A DNA stretch of 64,000 bases, taken from positions 7,185 to 71,184 of the forward strand of contig CAIQAL010000001.1 in the NCBI GenBank assembly GCA_903869825.1. Reading direction: 5' to 3'. The stretch comes from an uncultured bacterium (lineage in GTDB: Bacteria > Patescibacteriota > Minisyncoccia > Phycocordibacterales > UBA9973). Below, piece by piece: positions 11,819 to 58,802 of the stretch (positions are counted from its first letter, which is position 1; the number at the start of each line of letters is the position of its first letter). The notes beneath the pieces were generated by a model, which did not search any database, was not told where the DNA came from, and saw only the letters and a list, made by a program, of their open reading frames with translations. Both the position numbers and the translations under genes were made by a program.

Positions 11819-14284
11819 ATGGCAAAAAAATCAACTTATGAAAGTGCGCCGGAGGCGCCACGAAAAGATGGAATTCTCCCAGTAGATATTGTGGGAGAAA
11901 TGAAAGAATCATATTTGGCATATGCAATGTCGGTTATTACTTCGCGTGCTCTGCCGGATGTTCGAGACGGACTGAAGCCGGTTCATCGTAGAATATTATT
12001 TGCGATGAATGAAATGGGGCTCACTTCAAGTGCTCGATTTCGAAAATCGGCGGCGGTAGTGGGAGATGTGCTTGGAAGATATCATCCTCACGGAGATGTG
12101 GCAGTTTACGAAACAATGGTGGGGATGGCACAAGAATTTTCTTATCGTTACCCATTCATTTTAGGCCAAGGAAACTTTGGTTCGATTGACGGAGACAGCG
12201 CCGCGGCGATGCGCTATACCGAAGCAAAGATGGCAAAGATTTCAAACGAGCTACTAAAAGATTTGGAAAAAGAAACGGTTGATTTTCGACCAAATTATGA
12301 TCAAACAAGGAAAGAGCCAATTGTTCTTCCCGCTTCTGTTCCAGCTCTTCTATTGAACGGAACTTTAGGAATTGCAGTCGGGATGGCAACAAACATTCCT
12401 CCGCATAATTTAGCGGAAGTGGTGGATGCCACAGTACATTTGATCGACAATGAAGAGGCTACGACCGAAGACTTGATGCAATTTGTAAAAGGTCCTGACT
12501 TTCCAATGGGAGGAATTGCCTATGGTTCTAAAGATATGATTCACGCTTATTCCTCGGGACGAGGGGGAGTGGTTTGTCGAGGAGAAGCCGAGATTATCGA
12601 AACAAAAGGAGGGAGTTTTCAGATTGTCATTACTTCAATCCCATTTCGGGTCAATAAATCAAATTTGATAATGTCGATTGCAGAATTAGTACAAGAAAAA
12701 AAGCTGGATGGAATAAAAGGTTTGCGAGATGAATCGACAAAAGATATCAGAATCGTGATTGATTTAAAAAACGGTTCTCATCCGGAAAAAGTTTTAAACT
12801 ATATTTATAAAAATACTCAACTTGAATCGAATTTTAATTTCAACATGGTAGCTTTGGTGGATGGAGTTCCTCAAACTCTTTCCTTGAAATCAATTCTTTC
12901 AGAATTTATCACTCACAGAAGAGAAGTGGTAAAAAGAAGATCTCAATATGATCTTCGAAAAGCGGAAGAGCGGGAACATATTTTACTTGGTCTCAAGAAA
13001 GCTTTGGATAAGATTGATCGGGTTATTTCGATAATCAGGAGTTCAAAAGATGCCGGAATCGCGAAAGTAAATTTGATGAAAGAATTTAAATTTTCGGATT
13101 TACAGGCCACGGCAATTCTTGAAATGAAGTTGCAAAAACTTGCCGGGCTCGAAAGAAAAGCAGTAGAAGACGAATTGGCGGAAAGGCAGAAATTCATCAA
13201 AGAAATAAAGGAGCTTTTGGCTAATCCAAAAAAAATGCTTAAGGTTGTTTCGGAGGAATTAAAAGAAATTCGTGAAAAATATTGCGATGAACGTCGAACA
13301 AAAATAGTGAAAGGAGGAGTAAAAGAAATCAATGATGAAGATTTGATTCCCGATGAGGAAACGATGCTTGTTTTCACTGCTGGTGGATATGTAAAACGAA
13401 CTGATCCGAGTGAGTATCGTGCTCAAAAAAGAGGCGGAGTCGGAGTAGTAGACCTTGAAACAAAAGAAGAAGATTTTGTTACGAAACTTGTTTCTGGTTC
13501 AACCCACAGCGATTTGCTGTTCTTTACAAATTTGGGAAAAGCTTATCAAATAAAAATGTATGACATTCCGGAAGGACGCAGAGCAACAAAAGGAAAATCA
13601 ATTATGAATTTCCTTTCACTCGCTAGTGAAGAAAAAGTTACTTCCATTTTGCCGATGTCGAAAGAAATGAAAAAAACTCCGATTTCTTTGATGCTTGTAA
13701 CAAAAAATGGCACCGCAAAGAAAATGTCAGGTGAGAGCTTCACTGATGTTCGCCGAAGTGGCATTATTTCGATTCGTCTGGATAAGGGTGACGAATTAGT
13801 GCAAGCTTTACTCACTGACAAGGGAGATGAAGTAATGGTCGCCACAAACGGGGGACAGTCAATCCGCTTTAAAGAAAGTGATATTCGGGAAATGGGCCGT
13901 ACCGCTGGAGGTGTGCGCGGAGTAAAGCTTGGAAAGACGGATGAAGTTATTGCTGTTGACGTAATTAAAAAAGAAAAAAAAGACGGATTTTTCCTGACGA
14001 TGAGCGCAAACGGTTTTGGCAAAAAGACAGCTTTAAAAGAATACAAAGTTCAAAAGAGAGGTGGTTCTGGAATTAAAACTGCGAAGGTGACTCCAAAAAC
14101 AGGAAAGTTAATTGTGGCAAAAGTCTTAACCGGTGAAGAAGAAGAATTAATTGCAATGTCAAAGAAAGGACAAGTCATCCGAACTGCTTTAAAAGATATT
14201 CCGTCGCTTGGCCGACAAACTCAAGGCGTTACTATTATGCGACTTCGTGCCGGCGATGGTATTGCTTCCTTAACTTGCGTATAA
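11819..14284 (+). CDS. gyrA: DNA gyrase subunit A
   Basis: [30 protein letters not shown] ... YHPHGD ... C-terminal beta-pinwheel repeats; 821 aa. Confidence 0.95.
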
Positions 14285-14314
14285 CAACTGTGCACAAAAT
14301 GTTATAATTAAATT

Positions 14315-14857
14315 ATGTTTGCTGATCCAATAAAAAATTTAAAACAATTCGGACTTCGGGAAGATATGATTGTGGCAGATTTGGGGGCGGGCACCGGTTT
14401 TTATTCTGTCGCGGCCGCTAGAATGTTGCCAAAAGGAAAAGTATACGCGGTTGAAGTTATAAAGGATTACGTAACTACAATCAAAAATAAGGCAAAAGAA
14501 CTTCGATTAAATAATATCGAGTGTTTTTGGGGAGATATTGAAAAATTAGGAGGTACAAAATTAAAAAACGGTATTGTTGATGCCGTTATTTGTTCCAACA
14601 TTTTTTCTCAGATTTCTGACCACGATGGTTTAATCGCTGAAATAAAGAGGATAATAAAACCAACTGGTAAGATATTTTTTATTGAGTGGGTGGATGGGCC
14701 TTCTTTGGTTGGTCCCAAACAAGAAAAAATGTTTTCAAAAGAAAAAGTGGTTGGAATGTTTGAAAAAATAGGTTTCTCACTTGAAAGAGAGATAGATACC
14801 GGAAGCCATCATTATGGTATGATATTAATAAATAAAAAATATGAAAGGAAATTTTAA
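14315..14857 (+). CDS. class I SAM-dependent methyltransferase
   Basis: VADLGAGTGFYS motif I; 180 aa. Confidence 0.7.
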   Translation: MFADPIKNLKQFGLREDMIVADLGAGTGFYSVAAARMLPKGKVYAVEVIKDYVTTIKNKAKELRLNNIECFWGDIEKLGGTKLKNGIVDAVICSNIFSQISDHDGLIAEIKRIIKPTGKIFFIEWVDGPSLVGPKQEKMFSKEKVVGMFEKIGFSLEREIDTGSHHYGMILINKKYERKF

Positions 14858-16136
14858 GTTGATTTTAATAGTAGTTTTTATGGTGGCTGCTATTTTTGGC
14901 ATTTTGGTTTTTTCGGGATTGATTCCCCTCGGTAGCCAAAAAAACTCTGAAGGGTTACTTGGAACGGTTACTTTATGGGGGACCGAAAAAACAGTCAACC
15001 TGGCACAAGCATTAGAAAATTTTAATAAGGCGAATCCGACTTTTCTCGTAAAATATATAGAGAAAGATCCGGAAACCTTCGATAGTGATTTGCTTGAAGC
15101 ATTAGCGTCTGGCACAGGCCCGGATATGTTTTTAATTTCAAATAATTTAGCTTATAAATACAGTAATAAGATTTACACCATTCCGTACCAAAGTTATCCG
15201 CTTGCTTCGTTCAAAAACAATTTTGCCGGGGCAGGCGAAGTGTTTCTTACTTCAAAAGGAGTATTAGCTTTTCCGATTACAATAGATCCACTGGTTATGT
15301 ATTACAATCGTAGTATTTTGGATACCAATAATATTATCTATCCGCCCCAAACTTGGTCCGATTTCGATACATTGGTTCCAACCCTTACCAAGCTTGATGC
15401 CGGAAATAAAATCAAGACAAGTGCTGTTGCGATGGGACAGTTTGCAAATGTTTTAAACGCAAAAAGTATTTTAGCCACTCTTTTTATGCAAGTTGGAAAC
15501 CCAGTAATTGCCGAGAAAAATGGTATCTTCTCTTCTACTTTGGATGATAATACAAAGTCAGACTTAAGTTCGGTCCTAAAATTTTATACAAATTTTTCTG
15601 ATCCATTAAACAGTTTTTATACTTGGAATCGTTCACTTCAAAATTCTCAAGATGCTTTTAGTTCTGAAAACTTAGCTTTCTATTTTGGATATTCTAGCGA
15701 ACTCCCGTCTTTAGTTCAAAAGAATCCGAACGAAAATTTTGCGGTTGCTCCAATGCCCCAAGTAAAGAATTCGAATTATAAGACTACCGAAGCTGAAGTG
15801 ACCGGTATTGCGATTTCTTCTTTTTCAAAGAATTTTAACACTGCCTTTCTTGCAGCGAGCTTGATGGCAACGACTGACTTTGCGAAAAATTATATTAAAG
15901 CGGCCTCTCTTGTGCCAGCCAGAAGGGACCTTCTTTCCCAAAAGCAAACAGACGATTTTTACCCGGTATTTTATTCTTCTGCTTTATATGCCCGAAGTTG
16001 GATTGACCCGTTGGAAAGTGATACCAATGACATTTTTAGAAATATGGTGGAAGGGGTTCTTTCAAACAACATGACTCCCAGTGAAGCGATAAAGGATTCA
16101 AGTGCCAAACTTGATTTATTATTAATAAAAAAATAA
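14841..16136 (+). CDS. extracellular solute-binding protein (ABC-type SBP family 1-like), orphan
   Basis: N-terminal TM anchor, then LWGTEKT...FNKANP...GTGPDMFLISN, which is SBP_bac_1-like. No permease or ATPase genes are adjacent. Confidence 0.5.
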   Translation: MKGNFKLILIVVFMVAAIFGILVFSGLIPLGSQKNSEGLLGTVTLWGTEKTVNLAQALENFNKANPTFLVKYIEKDPETFDSDLLEALASGTGPDMFLISNNLAYKYSNKIYTIPYQSYPLASFKNNFAGAGEVFLTSKGVLAFPITIDPLVMYYNRSILDTNNIIYPPQTWSDFDTLVPTLTKLDAGNKIKTSAVAMGQFANVLNAKSILATLFMQVGNPVIAEKNGIFSSTLDDNTKSDLSSVLKFYTNFSDPLNSFYTWNRSLQNSQDAFSSENLAFYFGYSSELPSLVQKNPNENFAVAPMPQVKNSNYKTTEAEVTGIAISSFSKNFNTAFLAASLMATTDFAKNYIKAASLVPARRDLLSQKQTDDFYPVFYSSALYARSWIDPLESDTNDIFRNMVEGVLSNNMTPSEAIKDSSAKLDLLLIKK

Positions 16137-16550
16137 ATGAAAAAAAAATTTAGCGTATTATTAATTATTTTTCTTTTCAGTTTTATAGCTATGCCAGCTA
16201 TGTCCTTTGCGGAAGATACTCCACCAGATCTTTCTACCTCCGGGAACGGATTAACGGCCCCTTGCCCGACTGCCGGTTGTGGCTTCAATGACTTATTTGT
16301 ATTGGTAAAAAAAGTCATAAATTTTATTCTTTTTGCTTTAGCAGTTCCGATTGCCGCTATTATGTTTGCTTATGCCGGTTTTGAGTTGGTCACTTCCGGT
16401 GGCGAGTCTTCCAAAAGAACTAAGGCAAAAGAAATTTTTACGAACGTGGCCTTGGGACTTATTTTTGCGGCGGCTGCTTGGCTTATTGTACATACTTTAT
16501 TAACAATATTAGGATATCAGTCGACTTGGAGTACTTGGTTTGGCTTATAA
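16137..16550 (+). CDS. VirB2/TrbC-like pilin-family small membrane protein, paralog P1
   Basis: Sec signal peptide (MPAMSFA), Cys pair (CPTAGC), then two hydrophobic helices split by a short polar loop (TSGGESSKRTKAKE); 137 aa. Confidence 0.5.
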   Translation: MKKKFSVLLIIFLFSFIAMPAMSFAEDTPPDLSTSGNGLTAPCPTAGCGFNDLFVLVKKVINFILFALAVPIAAIMFAYAGFELVTSGGESSKRTKAKEIFTNVALGLIFAAAAWLIVHTLLTILGYQSTWSTWFGL

Positions 16551-16570
16551 AGTAAGGTATAATTATCATT

Positions 16571-16924
16571 ATGAAACATAATCGCAAGCTAGATTTATTA
16601 ACCATGTTCCTTGCATTTTTTGTATTGTTGGGTCCAATTGCTGTTCTCGCAGCGACATCAACGCCTACTATCGATAATCCAATTGGCCCGGCAACAGTAA
16701 ATGAATTCATTAAAACAATTTTAGAGGGAGTAATAAGAATAGGCATTCCGATTATAGCTTTAGCATTAGTCTACTGTGGTTTTTTGTTTGTCTCAGCCCG
16801 AGGCAATACCGAAAAGATAAATACAGCTAAGGATTCTTTAATTTATACATTAGTCGGGGCAGCGATACTCCTTGGGTCATGGGCAATCGCTCAGCTTATT
16901 TCTAATACGGTATTAAAATTATAA
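16571..16924 (+). CDS. VirB2/TrbC-like pilin-family small membrane protein, paralog P2
   Basis: Signal peptide (IAVLAATS), helix - SARGNTEKINTAKD loop - helix; 117 aa. Confidence 0.45.
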   Translation: MKHNRKLDLLTMFLAFFVLLGPIAVLAATSTPTIDNPIGPATVNEFIKTILEGVIRIGIPIIALALVYCGFLFVSARGNTEKINTAKDSLIYTLVGAAILLGSWAIAQLISNTVLKL

Positions 16925-16933
16925 ATATATTTT

Positions 16934-17683
16934 ATGAAAAATAAAAAGTTTGTGAAGATTAGTTTAATGATTTTTGTTTTAGCCATTCTGTTATTTTCTC
17001 CAGTATCGTCCTTTGCAGCAGCCCCTACTGGGCAAATAGTTTGTCGCGATGCTGTTACGAACATTAAAGACTTAATTTGCCGAGTTGGAGAAATATTAAA
17101 CTATATTATTCCATTTTTATTACTCCTTGGAGTCGTTTATTTTGTTTGGGGAGTAGTGCAATATGTGATTAAAGACGAAGAAGAAGCGAAAAAGAAAGGA
17201 CGAGATAAAATAATCTATGGCTTGATTGGGATCGTAGTTATTATTTCTATGTGGGGAATAGTAACTTTGATTATTAATACTTTTGGTATAAGTACAGCGG
17301 AACTCGCTCAAATTACTCCCGGAACAACTTTTTCTCAAACCAGCAATAATTATACTCAAGTTTCAAATATTTGCGCTACCAACTACAAATCTCTTTCAGA
17401 ACCGTTGTTAGGAGATTTGATAAATTATGTAACTTGTACCATCAGTAAATCTATTGTACCACTTCTCTTTACCCTGGCTACACTCTTGTTTGTTTGGGGA
17501 GTAGTTCAATATGTTATAAACGCTGATTCGGAAGAAAAACGAACCAAAGGAAGGGATTTTATGATTTGGGGAATTGTTGCACTTGCCGTAATGGCAGGGA
17601 TGTGGGGGTTAGTAAACATTTTTGGAACTACTTTTAACATCGGGAATGGTACCCAGTATGTCCCTCAGGTAAAAAGTAATTAG
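16934..17683 (+). CDS. VirB2/TrbC-like pilin-family protein, paralog P3 (internal tandem duplication: two pilin-like units)
   Basis: Signal peptide. Unit 1 is C..C + LLLLGVVYFVWGVVQYVIKDEEEAKKKGRDKIIYGLIGIVVIISMWGIV. Unit 2 is C.C + LLFTLATLLFVWGVVQYVINADSEEKRTKGRDFMIWGIVALAVMAGMWGLV. Confidence 0.5.
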   Translation: MKNKKFVKISLMIFVLAILLFSPVSSFAAAPTGQIVCRDAVTNIKDLICRVGEILNYIIPFLLLLGVVYFVWGVVQYVIKDEEEAKKKGRDKIIYGLIGIVVIISMWGIVTLIINTFGISTAELAQITPGTTFSQTSNNYTQVSNICATNYKSLSEPLLGDLINYVTCTISKSIVPLLFTLATLLFVWGVVQYVINADSEEKRTKGRDFMIWGIVALAVMAGMWGLVNIFGTTFNIGNGTQYVPQVKSN

Positions 17684-17811
17684 TTTTTTATTAATTGGTT
17701 ATCTGTTATAATTAGGTTAGCCTAAGAAAGGAGAATATTATTAGTAAGGTCGCATTATTATTATTTCAGCCACGAGCTGATCCGCATTAAGCGGAAGGAA
17801 AGTAAAATATT

Positions 17812-18192
17812 ATGAAAAAGAGATTAATTGTTTTGTCGAGTGTGTTGTCTTTAGTACCATTTTTGGCACTAGCCCAAAATGCCGGACTTTGTACCTACCA
17901 AACCGGGATCCAAGCGGTTATTTGTAAAATTGGAGAAATTTTAAATACGATAATTCCAATTTTGATTGTTTTGGGTGTTGTTTACTTCGTATGGGGAGTC
18001 ATCACCTATATGATTGGAGCAGACGAAGAAGCAAAAAAGAAAGGACGAGATAAGATTATTTACGGAATCATTGGTCTTGTTGTAATCGTTGGGATGTGGG
18101 GATTGGTAAAGATTGTTACTAGTACTTTTCAATTGAATAACTCAACTGGAGGGATTGTAACTCCTTGTGTTCCAGGAACTCCAGGCTGTTAA
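17812..18192 (+). CDS. VirB2/TrbC-like pilin-family small membrane protein, paralog P4
   Basis: Signal peptide (FLALAQN), CTYQTGIQAVIC Cys pair, LIVLGVVYFVWGVITYMIGADEEAKKKGRDKIIYGIIGLVVIVGMWGLV. Strong SD GGAAGGAAAG upstream. Confidence 0.5.
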   Translation: MKKRLIVLSSVLSLVPFLALAQNAGLCTYQTGIQAVICKIGEILNTIIPILIVLGVVYFVWGVITYMIGADEEAKKKGRDKIIYGIIGLVVIVGMWGLVKIVTSTFQLNNSTGGIVTPCVPGTPGC

Positions 18193-18201
18193 AGATAATT
18201 T

Positions 18202-18552
18202 ATGAACTTTCTTTTTACAAACATAGCATATGCAAGTGGTGAATCAGTAGGGGAGTTCATGGATAAGGTTGATACATTTATTATCAATCCTCTGATTTTG
18301 TTACTGTTTGCTTTAGCGGTTGTGTATTTCCTTTATGGAATAGTTGAATTTATTTCAAATGCACAGAATGAAGAAAAAAAAACTGCCGGCAAAAGTCATA
18401 TGATTTGGGGAATTGTTGGAATAGGAATAATGATGGCAGTATTTACTTTGATGCACATTGTTCTAAATACTTTAAACATCAAAGGTGTCGATCCTGAGAA
18501 TGGAAAAGTACAACTTGATGATTACAATCCGCCATCTTCGTATACTCAGTAA
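18202..18552 (+). CDS. VirB2/TrbC-like pilin-family small membrane protein, paralog P5
   Basis: Short N-terminal leader (MNFLFTNIAYA), LLLFALAVVYFLYGIVEFISNAQNEEKKTAGKSHMIWGIVGIGIMMAVFTLM. Confidence 0.45.
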   Translation: MNFLFTNIAYASGESVGEFMDKVDTFIINPLILLLFALAVVYFLYGIVEFISNAQNEEKKTAGKSHMIWGIVGIGIMMAVFTLMHIVLNTLNIKGVDPENGKVQLDDYNPPSSYTQ

Positions 18553-18570
18553 AAAAGAAAACGTTAAAAT

Positions 18571-18608
18571 AAAAAAGCGACCAGAGTGTAGGTCGCTTTT
18601 TTATTTTA
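18571..18608. terminator. bidirectional rho-independent terminator between pilin array (+) and IPT/TIG gene (-)
   Basis: AAAAAAGCGACCAGAGTGTAGGTCGCTTTTTTATTTT: GCGACC/GGTCGC stem, A-run and T-run. Confidence 0.55.
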
Positions 18609-18615
18609 TTTGTTG

Positions 18616-19362
18616 TTAAGCATGTTTTAAGGGCATTCTTTTTTCCTCTTCACTTACATAGAGTCTCCTCCAAAGGATTACTCCCAAAAGAATCAAGATG
18701 AAGAAGAAAATCCATTGTAGTAAGCTCGAAGGCATAAAAGCGTTGCTTCCAAAAATTGCACTTGCCGCTAAGTCTTTTGTTGTCGCGGTAGTGGCATCTT
18801 GTGTGTTTGTTGAATTGGAAGAATTATTTTGGTTAGAGGCTTGAGTGTTGTTGGTTCCATTATTGGTTGTTTGTGTATTATTGGCATAACCGTTGTTGTA
18901 ATTGTCTTTGATGGTGAACGTTACTTGATTTGATATTCCCCCGGCTGGGCTTGGATTAAAAACAGCTACCGAATAGTGAGAGGAATATTGCAAGGCAGTA
19001 GGGTTGAGCTCGGTAGTTAGAGTTCCGGAATTAAGATAGGTAGTCATTAAATCTGTACCGTTAATTCTAATAACTGATCCTTGGATAAAATTATATCCTG
19101 AAACAGTTATTGTTTGGTAAGAATTTCTAGGAACGGAATTTGGGCTGACGTAAGTAACTACCGGGACTGGGTTGACGACGTAATTATTGATATTATTAAC
19201 CGGCGGAGTATATGCTTGGTACCCGACGTAGGTATCACCTTGCCAACCTACTTGGTAATTTGCTTTAATTTGGGTAGCTGGAATAGCCAATAAACTCAAA
19301 GCTATAACAGAGAAAGTAATAAATTTTGGAGCTATTAAATTTTTCATATTTTTAATATTCAT
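18616..19362 (-). CDS. cell-surface protein: signal peptide + IPT/TIG domain + Asn/Thr-rich linker + C-terminal TM anchor
   Basis: YVSPNSVPRNSYQTITVSGYNFIQGSVIRINGTDL is IPT/TIG-like. It is followed by a low-complexity NNGTNNTQASNQNNSSNSTNTQD stretch and a C-terminal IFFFILILLGVILWRRLY hydrophobic anchor. Confidence 0.5.
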   Translation of the reverse strand: MNIKNMKNLIAPKFITFSVIALSLLAIPATQIKANYQVGWQGDTYVGYQAYTPPVNNINNYVVNPVPVVTYVSPNSVPRNSYQTITVSGYNFIQGSVIRINGTDLMTTYLNSGTLTTELNPTALQYSSHYSVAVFNPSPAGGISNQVTFTIKDNYNNGYANNTQTTNNGTNNTQASNQNNSSNSTNTQDATTATTKDLAASAIFGSNAFMPSSLLQWIFFFILILLGVILWRRLYVSEEEKRMPLKHA

Positions 19363-19368
19363 ACCTAT

Positions 19369-19397
19369 AGTATAGCATATACTGATTTAAAAGTCAA
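19369..19397 (-). promoter_or_regulatory. sigma70 promoter (minus strand TTGACT-17-TATACT) ending 7 nt before the ATG of the IPT/TIG gene; candidate leaderless mRNA
   Basis: Minus-strand reading is AACTTGACTtttaaatcagtatatgcTATACTataggtATG. Confidence 0.4.
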
Positions 19398-19414
19398 GTT
19401 AAAAATGGGTATTT

Positions 19415-19441
19415 AAAAAAGCAGTTAAATCTGCCTTTTTT
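19415..19441 (-). terminator. terminator after tRNA cluster (minus strand)
   Basis: AAAAAAGCAGTTAAATCTGCCTTTTTT: GCAG/CTGC stem flanked by A6 and T6. Confidence 0.45.
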
Positions 19442-19442
19442 G

Positions 19443-19524
19443 TGCTGGAGGAGGGACTCGAACCCTCAAGCCTTGCGGCACTAGTTCCTAAGACTAGCGC
19501 GTATACCAATTCCGCCACTCCAGC
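19443..19524 (-). tRNA. tRNA-Leu (anticodon TAG), type II, long variable arm
   Basis: Reverse complement GCTGGAG-TG-GCGGAATTGGTATACGC-...-CTAGT-CTTAGGA-ACTAG-long arm-GGGTTCGAGTCCC-CTCCAGC-A. Acceptor 7 bp; anticodon loop CTTAGGA; CCA not encoded. Confidence 0.8.
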
Positions 19525-19562
19525 AAACATAATTTTATATAAATGTTTTAATTAAACATTTG

Positions 19563-19635
19563 TCCGCCCTGAAGGGATCGAACCTTCGACCTTATCCTTA
19601 AGAGGGATCTGCTCTACCAGCTGAGCTAAGGGCGG
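19563..19635 (-). tRNA. tRNA-Lys (anticodon CTT)
   Basis: Reverse complement CCGCCCT-TA-GCTCAGCTGGTAGAGC-A-GATCC-CTCTTAA-GGATA-AGGTC-GAAGGTTCGATCCCTTC-AGGGCGG-A. Anticodon loop CTCTTAA. Confidence 0.7.
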
Positions 19636-19681
19636 ATAATTAACTTTAACATGAAAATGAAAACAAATCTTATTAAGTTGT

Positions 19682-19763
19682 GTGCCCGGAGTGGGAGTCG
19701 AACCCACATCCCTTGCGAGACACGATTTTAAGTCGTGCGCGTATACCAATTCCGCCATCCGGG
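19682..19763 (-). tRNA. tRNA-Leu (anticodon TAA), type II
   Basis: Reverse complement GCCCGGA-TG-GCGGAATTGGTATACGC-...CACGA-CTTAAAA-TCGTG-long arm-GGGTTCGACTCCC-TCCGGGC-A. Confidence 0.8.
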
Positions 19764-19781
19764 CATTCTTGATTTGGACGG

Positions 19782-19853
19782 GAGGCCTGGGCCGGAATTG
19801 AACCGGCGTATATTCCTTTTGCAGAGGAATGCCTTACCACTTGGCTACCAGGC
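19782..19853 (-). tRNA. tRNA-Cys (anticodon GCA)
   Basis: Reverse complement GGCCTGG-TA-GCCAAGTGGTAAGGC-A-TTCCT-CTGCAAA-AGGAA-...-GCCGGTTCAATTCCGGC-CCAGGCC-T. Confidence 0.75.
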
Positions 19854-19911
19854 CTGAAAAATTTCAAATTTATCTTACTTAACTCCCAAGCTTCAAAAAA
19901 CCTTTTTAATC

Positions 19912-20241
19912 TTAACCGTTTCGCAACAGTTCGTCAATTTTCTGTCGATTCTTTTCTCCTCGATCAATTTCAATTTCAATAAAAGGAACATTTTTCATAT
20001 TCATATTTTTCTTCAAAAATTCGCGTAGTTCTTTTCTTTTTCTTTTAGCAAAAAGAAGAGCGGTATGTTCTTTTTCGTCTGGTAAAACAGTAATAAAGAC
20101 AGTTGAACGTTTTAGGTCGGGGGAGGTGTTACAAGAAATAACAGTTATGAGTGAGGTCCGATTATTTTCCCGGCCCAAAAACTGAGCAGAAAGCTCTTTA
20201 ATTAAATTTGATACCTTTTCGGTTCGGTTGTTTTGTTCCAT
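19912..20241 (-). CDS. rbfA: ribosome-binding factor A
   Basis: 109 aa, in the position immediately downstream of infB. The ...LITVISCNTSPDLKRSTVFITVL... pattern is typical of RbfA. Confidence 0.7.
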   Translation of the reverse strand: MEQNNRTEKVSNLIKELSAQFLGRENNRTSLITVISCNTSPDLKRSTVFITVLPDEKEHTALLFAKRKRKELREFLKKNMNMKNVPFIEIEIDRGEKNRQKIDELLRNG

Positions 20242-43787: not shown

Positions 43788-44960
43788 ATGAGTATTTTAG
43801 GAAGTACGAAAAATACAAATGAAATAACGCTGGTTTTTGATATCGGATCCTCTTCGGTTGGAGGAGCGATATTTTATATGCGGAGCGAAGGAGAACCTGA
43901 AATGATTTATTCTTACCGGGAATCAATTCCACTTGAAAGGAAATTGAGTTTTGAGAAATTTTTTGATTTAACTTTAAAATCTCTTGAGACTGTTGCTCAA
44001 AAAATTAGTTTGTCTGGTGTCGGTGCTCCAAAAAAGATTTTTTGTGTTCTTTCATCCCCTTGGTATGCTTCTCAAACTCGAAGTATTGTTCTAAAAAAAA
44101 ATATTCCCTTTGTCTTTGATCAAAAGTTAGCCGACGATTTGATTCAAAAAGAAATTTTGGCTTTTACCGAAGAGTGCCAAAACAAGTACTCGAACATAGA
44201 GAAGATTTCTCCGATTGAGTTAAAAAATATGTTGATTACTTTAAATGGCTATCCAACTGAAAAACCCTTGGATCAAAAAACAACCGAACTTGAAATGAAG
44301 ATTTTTGTTTCAATGACCGGTGAAAAAGTGCTTTCTCAAATAAAAGAGGCAATCGGGAAACATTTTTATTCAAAAAATATAAGATTTTCATCTTTTGTTA
44401 TGGCCTCTTTTGCGGTTGCTCGCGATACATTTTCACATCAAGATAATTTTTTGCTAATTGATATCGGGGGAGAAGTCACAGACATTTCAATGATAAAAAA
44501 AGATATTTTATCTTCATCCATTTCTTTTCCGTTAGGTAAAAACTTTTTAATTCGAGAAGTAGCTGGAATTCTGGATTGCCATTTAGATGAAGCAAAATCT
44601 TACATTTCTTTATATAAGGACGGACACATCGGAGATGAGAGCTTAAAAAAAATAGAACCGATAATAAACAAATTAAAATTAGAATGGCTTACAAAATTTC
44701 AAGAATGTTTGGTTAATCTTTCGAATGATATTTCTATCCCATCCACGATTTTTTTGACGGTAGATGAAAAATTGTCCGAATTTTTTACCGAAACAATAAA
44801 GTCCGAACAATTTAATCAATATACTTTGACCGAATCAAAGTTCAACGTAATATATCTAGGACCGGAGGCATTTGGAAGTGCTATTGTGTTTCGAGAAAAC
44901 GTAGAGAGAGACGCATTTTTAATCATTGATTCGATATATATTAATCGATTTTTGAAATAA
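43788..44960 (+). CDS. actin-fold (ASKHA) ATPase, FtsA/PilM-like
   Basis: Phosphate-1 ITLVFDIGSSSVGGAIF and phosphate-2 LLIDIGGEVTDISMI motifs; 390 aa. Confidence 0.4.
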   Translation: MSILGSTKNTNEITLVFDIGSSSVGGAIFYMRSEGEPEMIYSYRESIPLERKLSFEKFFDLTLKSLETVAQKISLSGVGAPKKIFCVLSSPWYASQTRSIVLKKNIPFVFDQKLADDLIQKEILAFTEECQNKYSNIEKISPIELKNMLITLNGYPTEKPLDQKTTELEMKIFVSMTGEKVLSQIKEAIGKHFYSKNIRFSSFVMASFAVARDTFSHQDNFLLIDIGGEVTDISMIKKDILSSSISFPLGKNFLIREVAGILDCHLDEAKSYISLYKDGHIGDESLKKIEPIINKLKLEWLTKFQECLVNLSNDISIPSTIFLTVDEKLSEFFTETIKSEQFNQYTLTESKFNVIYLGPEAFGSAIVFRENVERDAFLIIDSIYINRFLK

Positions 44961-44965
44961 AAAAT

Positions 44966-46213
44966 ATGGCTCAAAAAATTCTACAAGATATGAATATCAA
45001 AAAACCCAAAGCGGTTCTTTCACCTGCCAAGGTTGTCGATGTTCCGAGAGAAACTGAAATCAGAAATGTTCCAAGAAGTAATTCAAGATATACCCTTTGG
45101 ATTATTGCTCTAATTTCCGTTGTGTTTCTGTTTTTTGGGATATCTTCAATTTTTGCCAATGCTAAAGTGACAATTAACCCTAAATCAAAAGATTTTATCC
45201 TGAATCAAAATCTGTCCGCTACCAAAGATGCTAATTCCGGAATGTCTTATCATCTTGTTGGTCCTCTCACTGGAGAGGAATCAAAGCAAGTGGCTGCGGG
45301 AGAAGAGAAAAATTATTCTGTAGCTGCTACTGGAAATGTTTTGATTTACAATGCTTTTAGCTCTAGTTCTCAAATTTTAGCCAAAAATTCAAAGCTGGAA
45401 GGCTCAAATGGTAAAATTTATCAAACCACGGAGGAGATAACCATTCCAGGAGCTGCAAAAGACGGTACTCCCGGGAAAATCAGCATTGGGATATCGGCAA
45501 CTATCCCGGGAGAGGAATTCAACAGTGCTCCACTTGATTTCAAAATTGTTGGGTTCAAAGGTACAAAAAAATATTCTAAATTCTACGGAAGGTCCGTAGG
45601 GGAGATTGCTGGTGGTTTAATTGGAAAATCTCGTCAAGTAAGCGAAGCAGATAAAGTCCAGGTTATTACTGAGTTGACAAGTGCTTTGAAAAACAAACTT
45701 TATAAAAATGCGAAAGATCAGACTCCGGCAGAATTTATCTTGTTCCCGGATGCAGATTATTTGACGGTGGACGATCAAATCATTGGGACGGTTGGAGAAA
45801 ATGGAAGTGCAACAATTAGCATCAAAGGAACATATTATGGTTTTGTTTTTAACCGACAAGAGTTGTCAAAAAAAATAACCGATACGGTGTTGGATGATAC
45901 AGAAAAAAATGATAGTGTTTATATCCCGAATCTTCCCGATGCAAAAATTACGCTAACTGATAAAACTCAAGCATTGTTTACCGATGCAATGGAAATTTCT
46001 TTCAACTTATCCGGTTCGGTAAAGGTTGTTTGGAAAGTTGATGCTGATAAAGTCTTAGCAGATATTTTGGGCAAAAATAAATCTGATTTTAATGATATTC
46101 TGAGGGGGTATACCAATATCGAATCTGCCAATCTTTCTATCAAACCCGTTTGGAAATCGTCTTTCCCAGACAAAAGTAATAATATAAAAGTTATTGTAAA
46201 TTATCAGCAATAA
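44966..46213 (+). CDS. bitopic membrane protein (short cytoplasmic N-terminus, one TM, large extracytoplasmic domain), hypothetical
   Basis: TM YTLWIIALISVVFLFFGISSIF at residues ~42-63; 415 aa; starts 5 nt after the ASKHA ATPase gene. Confidence 0.3.
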   Translation: MAQKILQDMNIKKPKAVLSPAKVVDVPRETEIRNVPRSNSRYTLWIIALISVVFLFFGISSIFANAKVTINPKSKDFILNQNLSATKDANSGMSYHLVGPLTGEESKQVAAGEEKNYSVAATGNVLIYNAFSSSSQILAKNSKLEGSNGKIYQTTEEITIPGAAKDGTPGKISIGISATIPGEEFNSAPLDFKIVGFKGTKKYSKFYGRSVGEIAGGLIGKSRQVSEADKVQVITELTSALKNKLYKNAKDQTPAEFILFPDADYLTVDDQIIGTVGENGSATISIKGTYYGFVFNRQELSKKITDTVLDDTEKNDSVYIPNLPDAKITLTDKTQALFTDAMEISFNLSGSVKVVWKVDADKVLADILGKNKSDFNDILRGYTNIESANLSIKPVWKSSFPDKSNNIKVIVNYQQ

Positions 46214-46220
46214 ATTTTCT

Positions 46221-47932
46221 ATGGAAAATAGGATATGCCAAAACTGTCAGAAAGATTTCACAATCGAATCGGAGGATTTTTCATTTTACGAAAAAATTAA
46301 AGTCCCTTTACCAACCTTTTGCCCGGATTGTCGAACTCAAAGACGTTTTACCTGGAGAAATGAAAGAAATTTATATCGCAATAAGTGTGCAGCCACCGGA
46401 GCAAATGTAATCTCAGGTTTTTCCGTCGATTCTGGTATGACAATCTATGAAAGAGAATACTGGTGGAGCGACAAATGGGATCCAATGTCTTTTGGAGTGG
46501 ACTATGATTTTTCAAAACCTTTTTTCCTACAGTTTCAAAGTTTTATGAAAAGCACTCCGATGCCTTCCTCATTCAATGCCCGTACAATAAATAGCGAGTA
46601 TTTCAGCATACCGGAGATTTTAAGAATGCTTATCTGGTACACGCTTCCTGGGGTGGGGAGAATGTTTCTTATGCCGCACGAGTAAGCGAAGTAAAAGATT
46701 CTATGGATTCATTGGTTCTTTCTAACTCGGAACTTTGTTACGAAGTGATTGCCAGTAACAAATGCTACAACGTGACCCATTCCCAAAATCTTGAAGGTTG
46801 CAATAATTCTTCATTTTTATTTGAGTGTCGTGGATGTTCTGATTGTTTTGGTTGCGTTAACTTGCGCAACCAGAGTTACCATATTTTTAACGAACCATAC
46901 AGTCGGGAAAAATATTTAGAAAAAGTAAATGAATTTAACATTGGGAGTTATAAAAATTTTAAAGAAATCGAAAAGAACTTCAAGGATCTTAAGCAGAAAG
47001 CGATTCAAAAATACGCAAACATTGTAAATTCTCCCAACTGTACCGGAGATAATATCGTAAATTCATATAACTCTAAAAATTGTTTTGATCTTTATGGAGA
47101 GGTCAGGGATTGTAAGTTTATCCAAAATTGCGCCAAGTTCTTGAAAGACAGTTATGACGGATATGGAGTCGGCTCTTCGGCTGATCTTACCTATGAAGTT
47201 TTTGATACCGGGGTGCAAGGTTCTAGACTTTGTTTCGGGGCGGTTGTCTATGGTGGTCATGATGTCTATTATTCTTACAATTGTCACGGGAGTCAAAATT
47301 GTTTTGCTTGTGTAGGACTTCGCTCAAAATCTTACTGCATTTTTAATAAACAATACACCAAAGATGAGTATGAATCACTTGTTCCAAAGATAATAAAACA
47401 TATGAATGAAATGTCGTATGTTGATGCAAAGGGGAGAACATACAAATATGGAGAATTTTTCCCAAGTGACTTGAGTCCTTTTGCCTACAATGAAACTATC
47501 GCCCAAGAATATTTTTCATTAACCAAAGAAGAAGTTTTGAAACAAGGTTATAAATGGAGAGAAAAAGATGGAAGAAGCTACCAGATGGATATTAAAAATG
47601 AAAATATTCCAGATGATATTAAGGAAGTAGGTGAATCAATAATCGGGAAGGTTATAGAGTGTGAACACAAGGGTACCTGTAACGAACAATGTACTGAGGC
47701 CTTCAAACTTATCCCAGATAAATTACAATTTTACAAAAGGATGAATTTACCTTTACCTCGCATCTGCCCCAATTGTCGTCACTATGAAAGACTAGGAAAA
47801 AGAAATCCAATGAAGCTTTGGCTCAGAAAATGCATGAAGGAAGGTTGTCAAAACGAATTTGAAACGAGCTATGCTCCCTACCGATCGGAAACCGTTTATT
47901 GTGAAAGATGTTACCAACAAGAAGTCTACTAG
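46221..47932 (+). CDS. Cys-rich double zinc-ribbon paralog family protein, copy C (frame interrupted at a T-run ~46606-46612)
   Basis: ORFs 46221..46685 and 46703..47932 are one gene. In the -1 frame, NSEYF is followed by QHTGDFKNAYLVHASWGGENVSYAARVSEVKDSMDSLVLSNSELCYEV, which aligns to copy D. One extra T in the tatttc run restores the frame. Confidence 0.6.
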
Positions 47933-52163: not shown

Positions 52164-52775
52164 ATGAAAGATGAAGAAAAAGAAAAAAAAGAGGAAAATA
52201 AGGATGAAATGACGCCGAAGGAAGATGCTTCTGAGGTTTTAGAGTTTGAATTTAATGATGACGGAGAAGAAGATCTTAAAAAAACCATAAAAAAGCTTCG
52301 AGCAGAATTAAAGAAAATTAAAGCCGAAAAAGACGAATATTTAACCGGCTGGCAGAAAGAACGAGCGGATTTTGTGAACTACAAGAAACAAGACGAAGAC
52401 AGAAAGTTGAATTTCTCCGAATCAATCCGGGAAAGAATTCTAACCAGGTTTTTGAGTGTGGCGGACAGCTTCAATATGGCCTTTGCAAATAAAGAAGCTT
52501 GGGAAAAAGTTGATGAAAATTGGCGCAAAGGGGTGGAATATATCTATGGTCAGATGAATACTATATTTGAAGAATATGGAGTAAAATCAATCGGGGAAGC
52601 GGGAGAAAGTTTTGATCACAACATCCATCATTCGATAGAAATGATTCCGACTGATAAAAAAGAAGACGATCATAAAATTGCTGAGGTTATTCAAAGAGGA
52701 TACAAACTTGGTGACCGCGTAATTCGAGCTGCCCGAGTGAATGTTTTTGAGTACCATGACAAGCCCACAGAATAA
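52164..52775 (+). CDS. grpE: nucleotide exchange factor GrpE
   Basis: Acidic N-terminus, coiled coil (LRAELKKIKAEKDEYLTGWQKERADFVNYKK), C-terminal IQRGYKLGDRVIRAARVNV. Confidence 0.85.
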   Translation: MKDEEKEKKEENKDEMTPKEDASEVLEFEFNDDGEEDLKKTIKKLRAELKKIKAEKDEYLTGWQKERADFVNYKKQDEDRKLNFSESIRERILTRFLSVADSFNMAFANKEAWEKVDENWRKGVEYIYGQMNTIFEEYGVKSIGEAGESFDHNIHHSIEMIPTDKKEDDHKIAEVIQRGYKLGDRVIRAARVNVFEYHDKPTE

Positions 52776-54480
52776 AACCTGTCAGAATTGCAAGTGTGAC
52801 TTCATAATCGAATCTGAAGATTTTAATTTTTACGAGAAGATAAAGGTTCCACCACCGACTTGGTGTCCGGAATGTCGAATGATAAGACGTATGTCCTTTC
52901 GTGATTACAGGGTACTTTATAAAAGGAAAAGTGATAAAACGGGGAAAATAATTTTTTCTATTTTTCCACAAGAATCTCCTTTTAAAGTTTGGGAACGTGA
53001 TATTTGGTGGTCGGATGAATTGAATGCTCTTGATTACGGGAAAAACGTAGATTTTAATAAAAATTTCTTTATTCAACTAAAAGAACTTTTTTTTGATGTT
53101 CCTTCATCGGGGCAAACTTGTTGGAATATGGTCAATAGTGAGTATTGCACTGGTGCTAATAGTTTAAAAAATTGTTACCTGGTATTTGTATCCACGTTTT
53201 CAGAAGATTCCATGTATTGTGCAGAAATAAATAGAACAAAGAATTCTATTGACGTTACAAGAATCGAGTCGTCGGAATTGTGCTATCAATCTTTTGCTCT
53301 CATAAAGTGTTATCAAGCTTTCTTTTCTTCTCATTGTGAAAACTGCATGGATATCTGGTTTTCCAGAAACTTAGTTGGTTGTAATTATTGTTTTGGTTGT
53401 ACAAATTTAAGAAACAAGCAATACTGCGTTTTTAATAAACAATACACAAAAGAAAATTATATCAAATATGTAGATGATCTTGACCTAAGCTCTTACAAAT
53501 CAATGAAAGCGGTAAAAGAAAAGGCAGAAAAAGTAGTGGAAAAAAGTATCAGAAAATTCATGGAAGGACGATACAATTCTAATGTTTCCGGTGAGTACAT
53601 CAATAACTCAAAAAATACTTTTAATAGCTATTACGTTATTCAAGGAGAAGACAGTAAGTATGTTCAATCTTTTTTCACTCCTGGTTTTAAAGACTGCTAT
53701 GATTGTACGATGTGGGGACAAAATTCCGAATTATGCTATGAATGTTCTTCTGTCGGAGAAAATTGTTATAACAATAAATTTAATTATCGTTGCAGTAGAG
53801 GTTCGCATGATTGTGAGTATTCCTATAGTTGCTATGGAAGTTCAAATATTTTTGGTTGTTCTGGACTTATTAATAAACAATATTGCATTTTAAATAAACA
53901 GTACACAAAGGAAGAATATTCCAGACTAAGAGAAAAAGTAATCAAACACATGAATGATGTCCCATACTTAGACAAAAAGGGGACAATGTATACGTACGGA
54001 GAATTCTTCCCCTTAGAATTGTCTCCTTTTTCTTACAATGAATCAATGGCCCAGGATTATTTTCCCCTAGAAAAAAAACAAGCCGTTAACCTAGGTTTTA
54101 GGTGGAAGGATAAAGAAGAAAGGAATTACAAGATAGATATCAAAAATGAAAATATTCCTGATAGTAATAAAGACATTACGGAAGATATCTTAAACAAGGC
54201 GATTGAATGTGAAAACAAAAACAAAAACGTCGAATATTGTACTGAAGCGTTTAAAATTATTAAATCAGAGTTGCAGTTTTATAAAAAATTTAATTTACCA
54301 TTACCAAGATTATGCCCAAACTGTAGGCATTTTGATCGTTTAAAAATGAGGAATTCTTTGAAACTTTGGAACCGCAAATGTATGAAAGAAGGTTGTCAGA
54401 ATGAATTTGAAACCAGCTACGCTCCCGAATGTCCTGAAATCGTTTACTGTGAACGTTGTTATCAACAAGAAGTATACTAA
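52756..54480 (+). CDS. Cys-rich double zinc-ribbon paralog family protein, copy D
   Basis: Intact, ~575 aa. Start at ATG 52756 (MTSPQNKTCQNCKCDF...) overlaps the grpE stop by 20 nt in another frame; the ORF track's alternative start is 52741. Full architecture described in the findings. Confidence 0.65.
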   Translation: MTSPQNKTCQNCKCDFIIESEDFNFYEKIKVPPPTWCPECRMIRRMSFRDYRVLYKRKSDKTGKIIFSIFPQESPFKVWERDIWWSDELNALDYGKNVDFNKNFFIQLKELFFDVPSSGQTCWNMVNSEYCTGANSLKNCYLVFVSTFSEDSMYCAEINRTKNSIDVTRIESSELCYQSFALIKCYQAFFSSHCENCMDIWFSRNLVGCNYCFGCTNLRNKQYCVFNKQYTKENYIKYVDDLDLSSYKSMKAVKEKAEKVVEKSIRKFMEGRYNSNVSGEYINNSKNTFNSYYVIQGEDSKYVQSFFTPGFKDCYDCTMWGQNSELCYECSSVGENCYNNKFNYRCSRGSHDCEYSYSCYGSSNIFGCSGLINKQYCILNKQYTKEEYSRLREKVIKHMNDVPYLDKKGTMYTYGEFFPLELSPFSYNESMAQDYFPLEKKQAVNLGFRWKDKEERNYKIDIKNENIPDSNKDITEDILNKAIECENKNKNVEYCTEAFKIIKSELQFYKKFNLPLPRLCPNCRHFDRLKMRNSLKLWNRKCMKEGCQNEFETSYAPECPEIVYCERCYQQEVY

Positions 54481-54481
54481 T

Positions 54482-58736: not shown

Positions 58737-58749
58737 AATTTGTTTTCAA

Positions 58750-58778
58750 AAAGACCCAACATGGGGCTTTTTGTTTTT
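58750..58778 (+). terminator. terminator candidate after dnaK (imperfect stem + T-rich run)
   Basis: AAGACCCAACATGGGGCTTTTTGTTTTT. Confidence 0.35.
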
Positions 58779-58787
58779 CACCTTTGT

Positions 58788-58796
58788 GATATAATT
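58788..58796 (+). promoter_or_regulatory. extended -10 (TGaTATAAT) 7 nt upstream of the ATPase-1 ATG; candidate leaderless transcript
   Basis: TGTGATATAAT at 58786-58796; ATG at 58803. Confidence 0.35.
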
Positions 58797-58802
58797 TATC
58801 TA

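Follow-up and report, generated by a model that had tools for sequence, protein, structure and literature searches.

Five consecutive open reading frames (ORFs) on the + strand of a 64-kb stretch of contig CAIQAL010000001.1 (assembly GCA_903869825.1), referred to below in its whole length as the window, encode proteins that by their sequences belong to the T4SS_pilin family (Pfam PF18895) within the VirB2/TrbC superfamily. The five genes, designated P1 to P5 in their order, appear from comparison with related genomes to form an ancient, fixed and vertically inherited cassette of five pilin classes, and the gene directly upstream encodes a solute-binding protein (SBP). We regard it as fairly probable that the products are subunits of a host-contact pilus dependent on a type IV secretion system (T4SS), in which the five distinct classes serve as major, minor and adhesin-bearing pilins. 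The sequences most similar to P3 and to the SBP come from Candidatus Paceibacterota, Nomurabacteria or the Patescibacteria group, and to judge from these sequences the host is a Paceibacteria (Nomurabacteria-type) bacterium of the candidate phyla radiation (CPR).

Architecture of the five proteins

A first-pass annotation of the window, made from the sequence alone, had described five consecutive + strand genes at 16137-18552. All five ORFs are present there (Table 1), with intergenic gaps of 20, 9, 128 and 9 nt for P1-P2, P2-P3, P3-P4 and P4-P5, and the three peptide stretches quoted in the annotation were located in P3, P4 and P5. A Kyte-Doolittle scan revealed in each of P1-P5 two strongly hydrophobic segments with a short charged loop between them, in agreement with the two helices and charged loop that had been described. 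The signal peptide thought to be common to the array was found in P1-P4, which carry an N-terminal hydrophobic leader with an AxA-like site at its end (hydropathy and sequence), but not in P5, which has no classical one. The leader of P5 is short (MNFLFTNIAYA, 11 residues ending in AYA; ortholog consensus M..LF.N(V/I)AYA), and its hydropathy profile showed two hydrophobic segments only. The Cys pairs that had been noticed are present in P1 (CPTAGC), P3 (C37/C49 and C147/C168) and P4 (C27/C38), and an alignment of P3 homologs showed the pairs to be kept across 64 sequences.

BLASTP comparisons, in which the two hairpin domains of P3 were treated separately as P3a and P3b, yielded E-values of 2e-38 for P3a-P4, 6e-21 for P3a-P3b, 3e-21 for P3b-P5, 2e-9 for P2-P3a and 1e-6 for P1-P2, with identities of 21-49% among the paralogs of the window. 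Judged by these values the five proteins are paralogs with a similarity far beyond chance, as the annotation had proposed. Since P3 consists of two fused pilin domains, the five genes encode six helix-loop-helix hairpins.

The individual proteins differ in detail. P1 combines a signal peptide, the CPTAGC loop and a two-helix hairpin, and its orthologs are 62-77% identical over the aligned part. The lengths of P1-class orthologs vary from 125 to 675 aa; the added length is N-terminal, lies outside the membrane and consists of FN3, DUF5018/Ig-like or thrombospondin type-1 (TSP1) modules, with the same hairpin behind them. At least one P2-class ortholog (locus L075) likewise has an N-terminal FN3 module ahead of its hairpin. 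P1 and P2 of the window are minimal forms without extra modules. By sequence, the N-terminal modules fit pilins that display adhesive modules. P2 is the most TrbC/VirB2-like of the five proteins, with orthologs 53-62% identical. In P3 each of the two hairpins is preceded by a conserved Cys pair, and a PQVK motif at the C-terminus is conserved. The AlphaFold2 (AF2) model of P3 (pLDDT 74.8) predicts two hairpins with helices at residues 44-79/83-116 and 159-195/200-233. A search revealed 617 P3 homologs, and among the best 120 most cover 80-100% of the query. P4 has, besides its signal peptide, Cys pair and hairpin, the C-terminal motif CVPGTPGC; its orthologs are 82%, 78% and 49% identical, and it is the best-conserved class in comparison with one close relative. 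P5 is the last gene in the canonical order and in most variants.

Assignment to the VirB2/TrbC superfamily

All five proteins exceeded the Pfam gathering cut-off of PF18895 (26.6 bits), with scores of 39.0 bits for P1, 31.9 for P2, 60.1 for P3, in which two stretches are matched, 35.4 for P4 and 34.1 for P5. In the 71-position model the matches begin at about positions 3-16 and end at about 68-71. The features of this family, a signal peptide and two helices with a polar loop, are present in P1-P4 and in part in P5. The TrbC/VirB2 model PF04956 (cut-off 27.9 bits) was passed by P2 with 34.2 bits (positions 7-98 of 98 of the hidden Markov model (HMM) aligned), whereas P4 (24.5), P1 (15.8), P3 (15.7) and P5 (14.5 bits) remained below the cut-off. 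The NCBIfam model NF045849 (cut-off 40 bits) was passed by P3 with 49.9 bits; P4 reached 36.9, P5 31.8, P2 21.9 and P1 12.1 bits. These searches favour the VirB2-like assignment and uphold the T4SS-pilin architecture suggested by the annotation.

Type IV (PilA-like) pilins had been dismissed from the outset, and rightly so: the N-termini lack a G/FTLIE-type prepilin motif, the leaders are ordinary signal peptides and no type IV pilus pilin family is among the Pfam and NCBIfam matches. Holins and immunity proteins were rejected as well. Pfam contained no holin match at E<=1 and PHROGs none at all; the PHROGs scan gave a single weak match, of P3 (E 8e-4), to a family without assigned function.

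More distant comparisons were less specific. We aligned each ortholog class by hhalign with a template of five plasmid VirB2/TrbC sequences, taken from annotated virB2/trbC genes between virB1 and virB3 on plasmids of mating-pair formation type T (MPF-T). With this shallow five-sequence template, P1 reached a probability of 65% (E 6e-5, hairpin in register), P2 8.6% (in register), P5 2.4%, and P3 and P4 less than 1%. A profile of 64 P3 homologs revealed no pilin among the PDB sequences, and its matches to CD20 and to a LYZ2-domain protein are chance matches. As to the pilin fold itself, the expected hairpins are present in the P3 model, but a Foldseek search with this model found no significant match in the PDB. 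The predicted hairpin fold is compatible with a conjugative pilin, although the structure searches do not discriminate, and the links in sequence and structure to experimentally characterised pilins are weak. A tblastn search with P2 in 72,556 plasmids detected weak haloarchaeal matches only (E >= 0.02). The best of them (E 0.02) is a gene annotated as 'pilin' on the Natrinema versiforme plasmid pNVE500, at the head of a T4SS-like cluster that also encodes a 1,102-aa T4SS DNA-transfer protein and a protein with a TraM-recognition domain. This cluster is suggestive as a pointer and is not used as evidence here.

Conservation of the cassette across species

Three relatives, with P3 orthologs 73%, 62% and 49% identical to that of the window, were compared gene by gene. 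The shared locus comprises gyrA, a methyltransferase gene, the SBP gene, the five pilin genes, optionally a TIG gene, and rbfA and infB; a fourth locus (P0080) has the same gene content, judged from its gene list only. In every relative, each pilin of the window found its best match in the gene at the same position. Identities of these positional orthologs are 49-82%, compared with 21-49% for paralogs. As the one-to-one positional orthologs are closer to each other than the paralogs are, the array represents a fixed set of classes and not a rapidly varying array. The neighbouring proteins show identities of 56-72% (SBP), 53-69% (methyltransferase), 53-65% (aminotransferase) and 80-89% (GyrA), and the pilins thus diverge about as fast as the moderately conserved neighbours.

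In a scan in which each GTDB species was represented by one genome, 79 related loci were detected. Using an HMM of the six window domains, 5-6 tandem pilin genes were found in nearly all loci not truncated by contig ends. For classification by best match to P1-P5 we used 81 loci, the 79 together with L003 and L004, two of the 81 being redundant. The exact order P1-P2-P3-P4-P5 was found in 49 of these 81 loci, and most others contain a single additional P3- or P4-like gene or are cut off by a contig end. P1, P2 and P5 are first, second and last in nearly all complete variants, and gyrA is present in 65 of the 79 loci. The identity comparisons gave no indication that the paralogs had recently been duplicated or had undergone gene conversion. 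The annotation had suggested that the paralogs are diversified for surface variation. This idea did not hold, given the identities of orthologs and paralogs and the largely fixed order: a fixed and ancient cassette argues against variation and for distinct structural roles of the five classes.

The upstream solute-binding protein and the operon

An orphan solute-binding protein had been noted ahead of the array, and fold searches confirmed it. The AF2 model of the protein (pLDDT 87.3, pTM 0.84) has a two-lobe binding-protein fold with an N-terminal helix at residues 2-25, probably a membrane anchor according to the model. Foldseek searches in the PDB retrieved cycloalternan-, sucrose-, maltodextrin- and cellodextrin-binding proteins (best E=2e-22, range about 1e-22 to 1e-20, TM 0.6-0.8), and a sequence profile detected sugar SBPs among the PDB sequences (E=4e-8). 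The 120 closest homologs are 59-72% identical, which makes the SBP no less conserved than the pilins. The SBP stop codon abuts the ATG of P1. Upstream sequence of more than 1.5 kb is available for 74 loci, and in all of them an SBP homolog is encoded directly upstream of the array on the same strand, which makes the coupling of SBP and pilin genes invariant. Genes for an ATP-binding cassette (ABC) permease or ATPase were not recognised near the SBP gene in the window or in the compared relatives. In the literature examined, VirB2-like pilins are nowhere described as functionally linked to an SBP.

The SBP gene is in turn preceded by a class I S-adenosylmethionine (SAM)-dependent methyltransferase gene, with which it overlaps by 17 nt; of the 79 related loci, 74 contain a homolog of the methyltransferase. 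The promoter-like site with the extended -10 element TGTTATAAT lies 6 nt upstream of the methyltransferase ATG and is a candidate for the operon promoter by its consensus match only, as the promoter consensus scan as a whole was not enriched over shuffles. The short distance of TGTTATAAT from this ATG suggests a leaderless or near-leaderless operon transcript.

At the other end, the bidirectional terminator and the convergent IPT/TIG protein that the annotation had placed after the array are both there: an 18-pair stem with T-runs on both strands closes the pilin operon as well as the convergent TIG gene. In the TIG protein an Asn/Thr-rich linker is found besides a leader at the N-terminus and a hydrophobic anchor at the C-terminus, and its gene is found downstream of the array in 37 of the 79 related loci. 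Four tRNA genes follow beyond the TIG gene, and an Rfam scan of positions 14000-20000 revealed these four only.

The spacer between P3 and P4

The gap between P3 and P4 has a median length of 109 nt in the 49 canonical loci, whereas the other gaps are 7-15 nt long. In the window this spacer contains a second, conserved TGTTATAAT, again like an extended -10, and, about 29 nt downstream of it, the element AAGGTCGC. In 29 of 75 P3-P4 spacers the sequence AGGTCGC is found, its background frequency being 0.05 per kb, and the spacer element is located at the same position in L003, L004, L005, L014, L069 and others. Just ahead of the P4 ribosome-binding site lies a small GC hairpin, the stem of which changes between relatives with the pairing kept (compensatory changes). 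Rfam gave no match in the spacer, and the strict promoter consensus scan missed its TGTTATAAT. These sequence features point to the spacer as a putative internal promoter with a 5' leader that would boost P4 and P5. On account of such a boost, P4 would be the candidate for the major subunit.

Relation to published systems

In Southlakia epibionticum a series of predicted pilins lies in a T4SS cluster and is essential for epibiotic growth (Wang et al. 2023, PMC10633639); the same authors remark that T4SSs of Gram-positive bacteria are normally without a pilus (PMC10633639). Among T4SSs, only the Patescibacterial one, which has an unusual series of pilins, has been shown to be indispensable to the organism that carries it (PMC10633639, PMC12857230), and the Patescibacterial host is described as monoderm (PMC12857230). 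A survey of 3,035 Patescibacteria genomes with the profiles of PF04956, PF18895 and CONJScan (Quinonero-Coronel et al. 2025, PMC12102498) reported VirB2-like genes in 1,948 VirB4-bearing assemblies, near virB4 in 1,135 of them. In 383 assemblies, mainly from Microgenomatia and Saccharimonadia, the survey counted 441 VirB2 arrays, each with 2-11 genes, with an identity of the array paralogs of 25% on average and 54% at maximum (PMC12102498), and these array findings are repeated in a 2025 review (PMC12857230). According to Table S3 of the survey, PF18895 genes adjoin VirB4 and TrsD, one Nomurabacteria genome included (PMC12102498). VirB2-like arrays in Patescibacteria are already published, and the kind of array is known.

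The array of the window shares with the surveyed ones the PF18895 family, the tandem arrangement, the divergence (paralog identity 21-49% here), the chromosomal location and the position often away from virB4. It differs in its host, which belongs to Paceibacteria, whereas the surveyed arrays came mainly from Microgenomatia and Saccharimonadia. In GCA_001000035.1 the window-domain HMM detected five pilin genes (locus L041) where the survey table has one VirB2 away from virB4; Nomurabacteria-type arrays were therefore probably under-detected in the survey (PMC12102498). A term search of this paper revealed no mention of a fixed five-class order, fused pilins, an SBP partner or gyrA linkage.

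S. epibionticum ML1, a monoderm CPR bacterium, likewise has several VirB2-like pilins that diverge in sequence but resemble one another in structure, and transposon sequencing in it provides the only experimental support for pilin function (PMC10633639). There, however, the pilin genes lie inside a cluster with VirB4, VirB6 and VirB8 and the host belongs to the class Saccharimonadia, whereas here they are located between gyrA and infB behind an SBP gene in a member of Paceibacteria. VirB2 of the Agrobacterium Ti plasmid and TrbC of IncP plasmids have in common with P1-P5 two hydrophobic helices, a short loop and about 70-90 mature residues, and with P1-P4 a long signal peptide as well. The loop in our proteins is 7-8 residues longer and strongly charged, they carry extracellular Cys pairs, and a neighbouring virB1 or virB3, as in the plasmid loci, is not present. 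Pilins of the VirB2/TrbC family are characteristically assembled by a VirB4-dependent machine into an extracellular pilus with bound phospholipid, and VirB2 and TrbC are cyclised. The NF045849 pilin-like conjugal transfer proteins Mbov_0395 and MMCAP2_0565 from integrative and conjugative elements of Mycoplasma are also VirB2-like hairpin proteins from a wall-less or monoderm lineage, with a T4SS of the MPF-FATA type; they are encoded by a single gene next to VirB4 in a mobile element, in contrast to the chromosomal five-gene array. Matches to the archaeal conjugative or DNA-import pili of Aeropyrum pernix (8dfu) and Pyrobaculum calidifontis (8dft) are not statistically specific, and for these pili and the haloarchaeal plasmid 'pilins' shared ancestry no closer than the superfamily is indicated. 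The virB2 arrays of Bartonella and Anaplasma phagocytophilum, as cited in the survey, likewise consist of tandem T4SS pilin genes in host-dependent bacteria and are interpreted there as variation devices (PMC12102498). The stable orthologous classes found here distinguish our array from these, arguing for a division of labour rather than a variation device.

Proposed function and alternative explanations

In the explanation that we favour, P1-P4 would be exported with cleavable signal peptides and P5 would enter by its short AYA leader. Each pilin would form a membrane hairpin whose charged loop (e.g. DEEEAKKKGRDK) lies in the cytoplasm and whose termini are both outside; the tandem fusion in P3 is consistent with this both-ends-outside topology. 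An MPF-FATA-like T4SS (VirB4, TrsD, VirB3, VirB6) encoded elsewhere in the genome would extract and polymerise the subunits, and the product would be a conjugative-type pilus or tube serving a host-attached lifestyle. The five classes would have different structural roles (major, minor, tip) and would not be interchangeable, with P1, and sometimes P2, as the class that bears adhesin modules in other species. P4 and P5 would probably receive extra expression from the internal promoter, and the SBP may act as a glycan-recognising partner. The dependence on a T4SS we infer from the literature on other Patescibacteria, and VirB4 is recorded in seven of eight cassette-bearing related genomes (Table S1, PMC12102498).

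Several points weigh against a pilus of this kind. A pilus of such proteins has been seen in no Patescibacterium, so that 'pilin' itself is an inferred family name. We know of no precedent among T4SSs for an invariant SBP partner. No VirB4, VirB3, VirB6 or VirB8 gene is among the scanned ORFs of the window, as the annotation had already stated for VirB4 and VirB6. Within ±10 kb of the cassette no T4SS core genes were recognised in the 79 related loci, where no search with a VirB4 model was made, and the flanks match housekeeping genes.

A more elaborate form of the proposed pilus, which we consider unlikely, is a composite host-contact organelle of Paceibacteria that would so far have gone unrecognised: a heteropolymeric VirB2-type pilus of five obligatory classes including a covalently duplicated pilin, functionally coupled to the membrane-anchored SBP and with lineage-specific adhesin modules grafted onto P1 and P2. 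The SBP would in this case have been recruited from ABC transport and would recognise glycans on the host surface or gate assembly.

Hairpin proteins and SBP could instead form a T4SS-independent envelope module without a pilus, such as an oligomeric channel, a scaffold or a receptor platform for glycan uptake or sensing. The SBP gene directly upstream in 74/74 loci with its stop at the P1 start, the lack of recognised ABC permease and ATPase genes near it and of recognised T4SS core genes within ±10 kb in 79 genomes, the vertically inherited housekeeping context and the non-specific similarity to solved pilins are all in line with such a module. We nevertheless find it doubtful: in many other Patescibacteria PF18895 genes adjoin VirB4/TrsD, in S. 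epibionticum they are part of the essential T4SS cluster, P2 scores above the cut-off of the TrbC/VirB2 model, the N-terminal adhesin-type ectodomains of P1 orthologs are more in keeping with a displayed filament subunit than with a channel, and five conserved classes with a fused dimer resemble sets of major and minor pilins.

The paralogs could also be interchangeable versions of one subunit that serve antigenic or host-range variation, as has been speculated for the surveyed arrays (PMC12102498). Their divergence (21-49%) is high and similar to that in the published arrays, their N-terminal regions outside the membrane differ most, and some relatives have an extra P3- or P4-like copy. Nevertheless, positional orthologs are far closer to each other than any paralogs, the order is fixed across species-level genomes, the divergence matches that of neighbours such as the SBP and the aminotransferase, and recent duplication or gene conversion left no sign. 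The genes form a single operon with spacers of 9-20 nt except for one conserved region with the putative internal promoter, no obvious switching elements are present, and species differ mainly in the ectodomains added to P1 and P2 and not in copy turnover. Variation of this type is accordingly quite improbable. That P1-P5 are unrelated small membrane proteins (holin-like, bacteriocin-immunity or generic two-transmembrane proteins) matched by their hydrophobic composition, as the modest scores of 32-60 bits for very hydrophobic proteins and the many sub-threshold Pfam matches to unrelated transmembrane families might suggest, is very hard to reconcile with five near full-length alignments above the curated cut-off of one family that is linked to VirB4 in other genomes, with the lack of a holin or lysis match in PHROGs and with signal peptides, extracellular Cys pairs, deep conservation and an operon structure that are not holin-like.

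Other features of the window and of related loci

The window contains mostly housekeeping genes (gyrA, infB, rbfA, clpB, dnaK, grpE, alaS, mur ligases and others). Several TraG-like ATPases had been reported as making a T4SS plausible, but we found a single gene, which encodes a TraG/TrwB/HerA-like P-loop protein. The protein contains a treble-clef zinc finger (PF23477, TIGR04272) and a long low-complexity Pro/Glu-rich tail, and has no obvious N-terminal membrane segment on a reading of its translation. Its link to the array is weak. The gene was rejected as part of the same system on account of its distance of 40 kb, the lack of an obvious membrane segment in the translation as read, the zinc finger and the lack of a homolog in the flanks of the 79 related loci. 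It is probably one of the 't4cp' matches far from virB4 in the published survey.

Three Cys-rich proteins of 578-588 aa, which look paralogous on reading, have many CxxC motifs and zinc-ribbon-like termini and match no Pfam family. Their genes flank the dnaK and TraG-like genes, and the first two ORFs overlap by 80 nt. Four further consecutive ORFs of 390, 415, 154 and 409 aa are without Pfam families; the 390-aa ORF has weak FtsA/actin-like matches (NCBIfam E 2.5e-4), and the four may be divergent PilM-type or cell-division proteins.

Among the related loci, gyrA of GCA_027428315.1 contains an intein (1,213 aa, Intein_splicing) with a LAGLIDADG-like ORF nearby. A Y1 (IS200-like) transposase gene is inserted between gyrA and the methyltransferase gene in L001, L004 and the P0080 locus; this insertion is absent from the window.

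Table 1. Features of the window and of related loci. Positions are those of the window unless a locus (L001-L084) is named.
Feature	Position	Strand	Length	Remarks
Promoter-like site, extended -10 TGTTATAAT	14281-14308	+		ATAACA-16-TATAAT with TG; 10/12 consensus match
SAM-methyltransferase, class I	14315-14857	+		orthologs match Methyltransf_11/25/31
SBP, oligosaccharide-type (MalE-like) solute-binding fold	14841-16136	+		AF2, Foldseek, profile
P1	16137-16550	+	137 aa	ORF
P2	16571-16924	+	117 aa	ORF
P3	16934-17683	+	249 aa	ORF
P3-P4 spacer	17684-17811	+		TGTTATAAT 17704-17712; AAGGTCGC 17746-17753; GC hairpin 17782-17794
P4	17812-18192	+	126 aa	ORF
P5	18202-18552	+	116 aa	ORF
Bidirectional intrinsic terminator	18565-18608	both		18-pair stem, T-runs on both strands
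TIG protein	18616-19362	-		NCBIfam NF058597 'choice-of-anchor Z repeating domain', 78.8 bits
Four consecutive ORFs	43788-47932			
Cys-rich protein	52741-54480			
Cys-rich protein	54401-56137			
TraG/TrwB/HerA-like P-loop protein	58740-61037		765 aa	TraG/TrwB-like ATPase
Cys-rich protein	61057-62823			
Adhesin-pilin fusion	L078 6704-8731			
Adhesin-pilin fusion	L050 7280-9133			
Adhesin-pilin fusion	L023 1857-3098			
Adhesin-pilin fusion	L065 8714-9946			
Adhesin-pilin fusion	L075 7847-9865			
'pilin' of pNVE500	L084 9007-9348			best P2 plasmid match
gyrA with intein	L003 2964-6605			GCA_027428315.1
Y1 transposase	L001 6585-7214			
Y1 transposase	L004 5931-6569			

Implications

Patescibacteria, which live in attachment to other microbes, account for much of the diversity among uncultured bacteria. 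The array described here belongs to a known family and to a known type of array, and some of its features are previously undescribed. The count for L041 suggests that HMM surveys may under-count such arrays. If the composite organelle existed, no T4SS pilus before it would have had its own set of minor pilins and an SBP-type receptor. The fixed five-class operon of this one large clade, with its SBP and the adhesin modules, turns the notion of a "variable pilin array" into a testable hypothesis of major and minor subunits plus a receptor.

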